DNA of 64,000 bases. Origin: an uncultured Clostridia bacterium. Its GTDB lineage: Bacteria; Bacillota; Clostridia; Christensenellales; UBA3700. The DNA lies in assembly GCA_947646415.1 (NCBI GenBank), contig CANSGN010000001.1, positions 3,945 to 67,944 of the forward strand. The letters are read 5' to 3'. Both the position numbers and the translations under genes were made by a program. Under the pieces are notes generated by a model that saw nothing but the letters and a program-made list of their open reading frames with translations, ran no database searches and was not told the DNA's origin. Shown here piece after piece: positions 4,641 to 56,840 of this stretch; position 1 is the first letter of the stretch; each line of letters starts with the position of its first letter.

Positions 4641-4800
4641 ATGTTCGTTTTAATTTTTTATAATACTTATTTGGATTGGACTTTTAGTGATATTTTAACA
4701 AATAGTGATTTGTGAGTATTTACTTATACTAAACAGTAATTATTTAAGCCAAAATATTTCTAATAATTGTATAATAAATAACTGACTTAAAAAATAAAAT

Positions 4801-4840
4801 ACACCCCGAAACATTGTGTTTTGGGGTGTTGCTTTTTGTG
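4801..4840. terminator. bidirectional intrinsic terminator at the cassette edge (copy 1)
   Basis: 12-bp stem acaccccgaaac / gttttggggtgt (4801-4829). T-runs flank it on both strands: tgcTTTTTgtg on +, aTTTTaTTTTTT on -. Confidence 0.75.
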
Positions 4841-4939
4841 TAAAGTTTAAAGTAGGCAAAAAGTGGTGTTCACTGCAATAATCCTGTCAAAAATCGGGAC
4901 TATTTGGGGTAAAAATTTGCCTTAAATGTAAAGTTTAGG

Positions 4940-5114
4940 TACATGGAATAAGTATATCTATGTACATATTATATATTTATTATAGGGTCATAAGTAAACT
5001 TTTGTCAACATTTAATTAAACATTTTGTAATATCTTTACAAAAAAGCTACAAAAACTTTAAAAAACTTTTCAAAAAAACTCCCATTTTGTACATAGATAT
5101 ACTTATTCTATGTA
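4940..5114. promoter_or_regulatory. candidate invertible promoter segment (copy 1)
   Basis: Left IR at 4940-4966 (tacatggaataagtatatctatgtaca) and right IR at 5088-5114 (tgtacatagatatacttattctatgta) match 26/27 as reverse complements and enclose 121 bp. On the minus strand, TTGACA (5008-5003), an 18-nt spacer and TATAAT (4984-4979) point away from the ATG at 5137. Confidence 0.6.
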
Positions 5115-5136
5115 AGCTATAAACGGAGGTTTTATT

Positions 5137-56676: not shown

Positions 56677-56840
56677 GGTTGTTATGGTAAATTTGTGTAA
56701 TGCTTAAAAGGTATTATAAATGCTTGATTAGTATAGATTAAAAAGCTCTGGTATAGATTAGTGAAATAAATTTAACCTGCAATTTCAGCCAAATATTTTC
56801 TTGTTTTAATTAGTAAAATGCAATATCAAAAAACAAAAAT

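Follow-up and report, generated by a model that had tools for sequence, protein, structure and literature searches.

A fixed gene-distal arm beside a multi-copy invertible promoter may act mainly as DNA, with its OFF-state transcript as a by-product

The segment at 4747-4938 of the window (the whole 64,000-nucleotide stretch of DNA that was analysed) can be read as a fixed 'left arm', on the gene-distal side of an invertible-promoter switch that exists in many copies. With confidence slightly better than even, we favour the interpretation that this segment is an insulating terminator joined to an accessory or architectural DNA arm, which would work mainly as DNA and whose OFF-state RNA would be a by-product. 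A role at the level of DNA is favoured because the arm is made of short sequence blocks at rigid distances from the crossover, because one of these blocks is a word that occurs at ~200 other sites in both orientations, and because conservation runs on past the end of the predicted RNA. Invertible promoters are usually pictured as two repeats and a promoter. The inverton regulon described here has a third, fixed part, consisting of an outward terminator and candidate docking sites at set distances from the crossover, one of which appears to be taken from a DNA word that the clade carries genome-wide.

In the first of the window copies, a 121-bp invertible segment lies between two inverted repeats, and an ATG to the right of the switch (5137) opens the gene for a 986-aa dockerin-tailed surface protein. 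The features of this copy, and the other dyads of the window, are as follows:

5008..4979, minus strand: invertible promoter TTGACA-18-TATAAT, a 12/12 sigma-70 match, which faces left (OFF)
4939-4967, unstranded: left inverted repeat, a full recombination site (GTACATGG - 11 bp - CTATGTAC)
5090-5118, unstranded: right inverted repeat, with an RBS and the ATG (5137) to its right
4790..4838, unstranded: predicted two-way intrinsic terminator, made of an A-tract (4790-4800), a hairpin (4801-4829) and a T-tract (4830-4838)
4839..4849, plus strand: TGTAAAGTTTA repeat 1, which begins at a distance of 98-100 bp from the left inverted repeat, with few exceptions across copies and species
4927..4937, plus strand: TGTAAAGTTTA repeat 2, in which TGTAAA begins 12 bp from the inverted repeat
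4877..4904, plus strand: AATAATCCTGTCAAAAATCGGGACTATT, an instance of the word AAAAACC-nnn-CRAAAATCGG-tAyTAA, with its core AAAATCG 49 bp from the repeat
4747..4761, unstranded: dyad-like motif AGCCAAAATATTTCT, ~40 bp beyond the terminator and outside the predicted RNA
4795..4972, minus strand: predicted OFF-state transcript of ~178 nt, deduced from the promoter and the terminator
~39206-39220, 42862-42876 and 56787-56801: other dyads in the window

The initial annotation had proposed that the switch promoter drives a ~180-nt leftward RNA, that this is the architecture of a small-RNA (sRNA) gene, and that the switch might toggle between an mRNA and an sRNA. Its account of the parts held up: the minus-strand consensus promoter is there, with a predicted transcription start at ~4972, the direct repeat TGTAAAGTTTA occurs at both places, and the hairpin at 4829-4801 is followed on the minus strand by AUUUUAUUUUUU (on the plus strand it is preceded by AAAAATAAAAT, which is the minus-strand U-tract). 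As also claimed, the predicted RNA segment holds no ORF with an RBS, and contains three TTG/GTG frames of 20-39 aa at most. RNA started at this promoter would cross the left repeat and then the conserved stretch 4830-4938 (109 bp) before reaching the hairpin. The OFF-state leftward transcript is a sound prediction from promoter and terminator, and is probably made. A small peptide was considered and rejected: the frames that start at an ATG in the repeat span 9-31 codons, differ between species and have no RBS. At the other end of the switch, the right repeat ends in ATGTAA (5113-5118), a start-stop pair in the leader of the ON mRNA. Copies 3 and 4 have a second type of interior, with a weak rightward promoter-like site (TTTACT-18-TATATT, 43150-43179) that is present even in the OFF orientation and could cause leaky expression.

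Four cassettes lie in the window, starting at 4788, 39247, 42903 and 56828. They were said to share one layout; this was confirmed and extended to ~34 switches in the 1.73-Mb genome (28 family-A and ~6 family-B copies) and to six sister species. The left arm was found in every one of the ~34 switches, at the gene-distal side only, including family B and the copies assembled in the ON orientation. The latter comprise one of the 28 family-A copies (C14:26273) and two of the six family-B copies, all others being OFF, and ON copies were also found in G005 and G002. The inverted repeats bracket a promoter that occurs in both orientations in nature, as in other invertons. Mean pairwise identity among 23 genomic copies was 0.994 for the left repeat, 0.98 for 4870-4903, 0.93 for 4830-4938, 0.85 for the switch interior and 0.36 for the unique flanks; the stretch 4830-4938, which had been called the best-conserved part of the cassettes, is highly conserved and is surpassed only by the left inverted repeat. 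We found no stand-alone copy of the segment away from a switch in the genome.

Family B (G000:C1:195188, C7:104662, C9:71439, C14:1959, C14:37589 and C24:1498) has the repeat GTACATAGAATATATATAATCTATGTAC and a variant repeat spacer; it carries the word at the same 49-bp offset, but lacks the repeat-proximal TGTAAA. A second, unrelated inverton family was also present (G000:C4:14711, C4:48144, C4:88629, C7:100132, C8:76202, C9:217, C15:11435, C19:8698 and C30:827), in which 30-bp palindromes (GTGTCAGAAAAAGTATACTTTTTCTGACAC) stand 136 bp apart without a left arm. Outside the window, at G000:C2:67300-67700, a switch copy whose left arm and promoter are intact has a degenerate right repeat, is followed by neither an RBS nor a family gene, and is possibly a relic.

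A DNA search of 40 relatives recovered the cassette in six further members of the genus (one at ~90% identity and five at ~70%). No cassette was found in two other congeners or among 32 relatives from other genera. With 50 further copies from these relatives, 82 left arms from seven genomes were aligned, of which copies within one genome are not independent. The left-arm layout of consensus promoter, ~180 nt and intrinsic terminator recurs through the genus, with the promoter -35 and -10 kept in all species and a predicted leftward unit of 177-193 nt (76 copies, seven genomes). The order of the parts was the same everywhere: dyad, ~40 variable bases, hairpin, TTTTT(G/T)TGTAAAG, filler, core, filler, TGTAAA and repeat. 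Across species, the core block reads (C/T)C(A/G)AAAATCGG(G/T)..TA, and its AAAATCG lies at 49 bp from the repeat, within 48-50 bp in all but one of the 82 copies. The TGTAAA blocks stand 12 bp and 98-100 bp from the repeat (82 copies, seven genomes), and the dyad 175-193 bp from it (mostly 179-193 bp) in almost all copies of the seven genomes. At ~70% identity, divergence across species falls in the fillers between the blocks, in the hairpin stem and leftward of the hairpin; the fillers are swapped without a change of length and with essentially no indels, and length is variable to the left of the hairpin whereas the 100 bp to its right have almost no indels. Sequence blocks at fixed distances outside the invertible DNA, always on the gene-distal side, are what is expected of accessory sites, and conservation continues past the terminator, where the predicted RNA ends. 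The initial annotation had offered a recombinase accessory or enhancer site as its alternative, and this would fit the rigid spacing, together with the genome-wide DNA word, much better than an sRNA gene.

The dyad beyond the terminator has the consensus AGCC-N7-(T/G)(T/G)CT in the alignment and occurs as AGCC-N7-TTCT in the window, as AGCC-N7-GGCT in sister species and as AGAC-N7-GTCT in some copies; in G006 and G008 it is the perfect palindrome AAGCCAA-N3-TTGGCTT. It is cassette-specific, as ~30 of its 34 strict genome matches lie in cassettes, and compared to the 43 matches in a reversed-genome control it was not over-represented elsewhere in the genome. Contig ends inside cassettes were common in the sister assemblies (G005, G006, G008, G002 loci L048, L049, L054-L057, L062, L064-L066), as expected from switches of mixed orientation or from collapse of repeats during assembly.

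An explanation without function, namely that the 109-bp segment is part of a duplicated unit whose ~30 copies are kept alike by gene conversion, has to be weighed against this spacing. Copies are far more alike within a genome than between species, and species-specific filler (e.g. GTTCACTGCAATAATCC) is homogenised within each genome; much of the identity within a genome is indeed concerted evolution, which is also a point against the accessory-arm reading. However, the same short blocks stand at the same offsets across species in which the rest of the segment has been replaced, 100 bp remain almost free of indels at ~70% identity while the length left of the hairpin varies, and two sequence types are tolerated in the switch interior and not in the arm. 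We consider this explanation unlikely.

The terminator is the one part of the arm in which base-pairing is conserved. Over 76 copies, its stem pairs comprised 1014 Watson-Crick, 38 G-U, 24 A-C and 30 mismatched pairs; the stem sequence varies by species (e.g. ACACCCCGAAAC, GCACCATAAAAC, CAAGGCAAAAT and CACTCTAAAAG) with pairing retained, and compensatory changes were observed in six of the nine consensus stem pairs. T-rich tracts flank the hairpin on both strands in most species (means of 6.5 and 7.2 U of 10 in G000). The minus-strand U-tract is weak in G001 (mean 4.7 of 10, with at least 6 U in 38% of copies), and an upstream A-tract is generic in the genome, with a mean of 6.2 A of 10 over 341 terminator-like hairpins elsewhere. 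Since such tracts are generic here, the minus-strand U-tract does not in itself point to a dedicated leftward terminator, and yet it would work as one. A terminator scanner flagged the hairpin on the plus strand only; on the minus strand the eighth-position G-U becomes an A-C mismatch, and RNAfold still forms the hairpin there. An attempt to assign the strand on which the hairpin is selected from G-U vs A-C pairs (38 vs 24) gave a difference too weak for assignment. In copy 3, the hairpin is the sole terminator of the preceding paralogue. As judged from its pairing and flanking tracts, the hairpin at 4801-4829 is a genuine two-way intrinsic terminator.

The 27-bp word within the arm belongs to a much larger set. 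Its core, C(A/G)AAAATCG(G/A/T), had 253 loose matches in the genome, compared to 28 expected, and 220 non-cassette copies gave the extended consensus AAAAACC-nnn-CRAAAATCGG-tAyTAAw, with A/T-rich tracts recurring every ~10-11 bp on either side. In the window it occurs at 4877-4904, 1824, 8164 and 49077, and G000 has ~200 further sites. A total of 113 of the 253 matches were intergenic, although intergenic DNA makes up ~14% of the genome; in gaps, the word occurred between tandem genes (50 sense and 31 antisense), convergent genes (22) and divergent genes (8). Copies often lie beside terminators and sometimes form one as an inverted pair, and ~9 of 26 family genes carry the word after their own terminator too. 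Among 41 genomes searched, each of the seven with switches had 43-58 copies of the strict word, and the other 34 relatives had none. At an orthologous spacer in the pyr operon, four switch-bearing genomes keep the word in place between flanks that have diverged, and two switch-less congeners lack it.

We found no covariation between the flanks of the word in its 220 genomic copies, which indicates that it is linear rather than a hairpin. A hairpin reading of the 49-bp block was rejected on the same ground, good pairing being confined to G006 and G008. The word was likewise rejected as a promoter (divergent promoter regions have few copies, and both orientations are found) and as a general accessory of all invertons (it adjoins just 2 of 9 second-family switches), and its conserved position in an orthologous spacer makes a mobile mini-element unlikely. 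Similar to uptake sequences, it is strongly over-represented, found in both orientations and in coding as well as non-coding DNA, and specific to a clade. The word may be either a docking site or an uptake-type tag, and its link to inversion is putative.

The arm was also examined as the template of an RNA. A trans-acting sRNA, with a switch that toggles between mRNA and sRNA, would account for the consensus promoter and terminator, the unit length held at 177-193 nt in seven genomes, the minus-strand U-tract in most species and an invariant C-rich block, UACCCCCGAUUUU when read as RNA, which is a possible seed. A short non-coding unit with its own promoter and terminator is what an sRNA gene looks like, and this architecture is kept through the genus, with the promoter in place in one switch orientation only. 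The comparative tests, however, do not support the sRNA-gene interpretation. RNAalifold of 76 sequences on both strands returned the terminator and the repeat palindrome and no other conserved fold, as did alignment folding of 15 representatives. Covariation analysis of homologous cassettes, a check that the initial annotation had suggested, gave compensatory changes in the terminator hairpin alone (76 copies, seven genomes). Among 32 copies from the genome and its closest relative, stems of the body in the minimum-energy fold of either strand showed broken or one-sided changes and none that were compensatory, such changes being confined to the terminator. Folding z-scores of the 104-nt body were ~0 to -1.4 in G000, G001 and G005 and near zero in G007, and strongly negative only in G006 and G008, which carry a local palindrome. 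There was no Rfam match above chance for the window copy or five sister-species loci, and pairing of the body with the family mRNA leader was not better than with shuffles (p ~0.18).

Other properties of the arm also speak against the proposed toggle. The would-be seed is the DNA word, present in both orientations genome-wide, and no copy of the unit exists apart from a switch. Conservation extends beyond the terminator, and the minus-strand U-tract is generic to terminators of this genome and weak in G001. In addition, with ~30 near-identical copies in the OFF orientation, one flip would shift the RNA dose by ~3%, so that a single flip would be uninformative. Full-text searching of the literature found no description of an sRNA made from an OFF-oriented invertible promoter. 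A functional trans-acting sRNA is thus quite unlikely, and these results caution that a promoter and a terminator beside an inverton are insufficient to call an sRNA.

In the favoured reading of an insulating and docking arm, the terminator would block read-through from upstream genes, so that OFF remains off, and would keep the strong left-facing promoter from running antisense into the upstream gene. The TGTAAA blocks (12 and ~99 bp from the repeat) and the 27-bp word (49 bp) most likely dock host proteins, which, by analogy with IHF site 1 of fimS, may shape or bias inversion of the very short 121-bp segment. Every OFF copy very probably yields the ~180-nt leftward RNA, which would be a terminated by-product and not a trans-acting sRNA.

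A docking arm of this kind would be compatible with the candidate recombinase. Among eight tyrosine and three serine recombinase genes in the genome, one fits the distribution of the cassettes, as judged by distribution profile only in five genomes tested. It encodes a tyrosine recombinase of 309 aa, and lies at G000:C2:61313-62242, at 1.7 kb from a cassette. Orthologues have 77-87% identity in the switch-bearing genomes G001, G002 and G006; of the two switch-less genomes, G004 has at most 39% and G003 none. We regard it as a candidate cognate invertase. In relatives, the gene is not adjacent to cassettes. The protein has SAM-like and catalytic domains only and no arm-binding domain, so any extra sites would need other proteins. 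Two of the tyrosine recombinases of the genome, with lengths of 309 and 324 aa, are paralogues. A pair of 295-aa recombinases was disfavoured as the invertase, as it has no orthologue in G001, a genome with ~20 switches.

Several points weigh against an accessory role for the arm. The word is frequent at gene ends in general, and in the arm it could be inherited baggage kept by a genome-wide selection; the second inverton family has no consistent word; and the arm stands at just one of the two recombining sites.

Two further possibilities keep the leftward promoter relevant and give the RNA, or the process of making it, a part in the switch. It is improbable, in our estimate, that the act of leftward transcription matters rather than the RNA, evicting proteins or changing supercoiling so as to bias the next inversion and give the switch a state-dependent memory. 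The promoter does abut the left repeat and would fire through all the conserved blocks in the OFF state only, and at fimS, supercoiling and nucleoid proteins beside IRL influence inversion (PMC9993118); this proposal is, however, purely inferential, and sequence does not separate it from the by-product reading. An equally long shot is that the pooled, abundant ~180-nt RNA of ~30 OFF copies (carrying the complement of the word), or its making across the docking sites, feeds back on the switches and might titrate or evict a word-binding protein, such that the flipping rate is set by how many copies are OFF and few genes are kept ON. Most doubtful of all is a role for the plus strand as a weak fixed promoter (TAGGCA-18-TGcAATAAT, 4853-4882) or operator directing rightward transcription into the switch, which has a 9/12 match with a TG extension in all copies of the genome and a TGCAATAAT part shared with G001, but which is a poor match (A at the first -10 position and a weak -35) no better than shuffles, is not conserved in G005, G006, G008 and G002, and would be separated from the start codon by ~250 bp that include two recombination sites.

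If the insulating and docking arm controls the rate or direction of flipping, this would explain how a 121-bp segment is bent and why most copies rest in the OFF orientation. The 27-bp word would then provide a concrete handle for finding the host protein.

The switch family has counterparts among known systems at several levels. The C. difficile (Clostridioides difficile) cwpV and flgB switches are phase-variation switches in which termination belongs to the ON/OFF logic (PMC2784873, PMC7446863). They resemble the present family as Firmicute switches that use transcription termination, and differ in that a fixed upstream promoter is combined with invertible DNA that makes or removes a leader terminator or Rho site, whereas here the promoter flips and the terminator is fixed outside. 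In the Mycoplasma penetrans mpl (P35) system and the Bacteroides fragilis Mpi regulon, dispersed surface-protein genes have their own invertible promoters, most of which are OFF (PMC2268961). The same arrangement was observed here, with each surface-protein gene under its own invertible promoter and most copies OFF; in the literature examined for mpl (P35) and Mpi, we found no description of a conserved gene-distal arm with a terminator and fixed-offset motifs.

As a genome-wide element, the arm word can be compared with the USS of Pasteurellaceae, the DUS of Neisseriaceae and REP/BIME elements, which are likewise over-represented and clade-specific. Similar to these genome words, it occurs in both orientations, clusters at gene ends, has phased A/T flanks and sometimes forms inverted pairs inside terminators. 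It differs from USS/DUS in density (once per ~7 kb vs once per 1-2 kb) and from REP in that REP is palindromic and the arm word is not. To our knowledge, Firmicutes lack IHF, the protein that occupies the corresponding place in the closest parallel, fimS.

In fimS of E. coli, orientational bias requires IHF-1, a site beside IRL on the outside of the switch, and accessory sites and proteins include IHF-1 near IRL, Lrp, Fis and H-NS as well as an orientation-dependent terminator (PMC9993118). Both fimS and the present switches combine a short invertible promoter with a small tyrosine recombinase without an arm-binding domain (here a candidate), and both have a site just outside one inverted repeat, which is bound by a DNA-bending protein in fimS and is putative here. 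The fimS switch is a single locus with an invertible segment of 314 bp, compared to ~34 dispersed copies with 121 bp here. In both systems the terminator is part of the switch logic (PMC9993118); that of fimS is a Rho-dependent one within the switch, with fimE mRNA as its target, whereas the one described here is predicted to be intrinsic, two-way and outside the invertible DNA.
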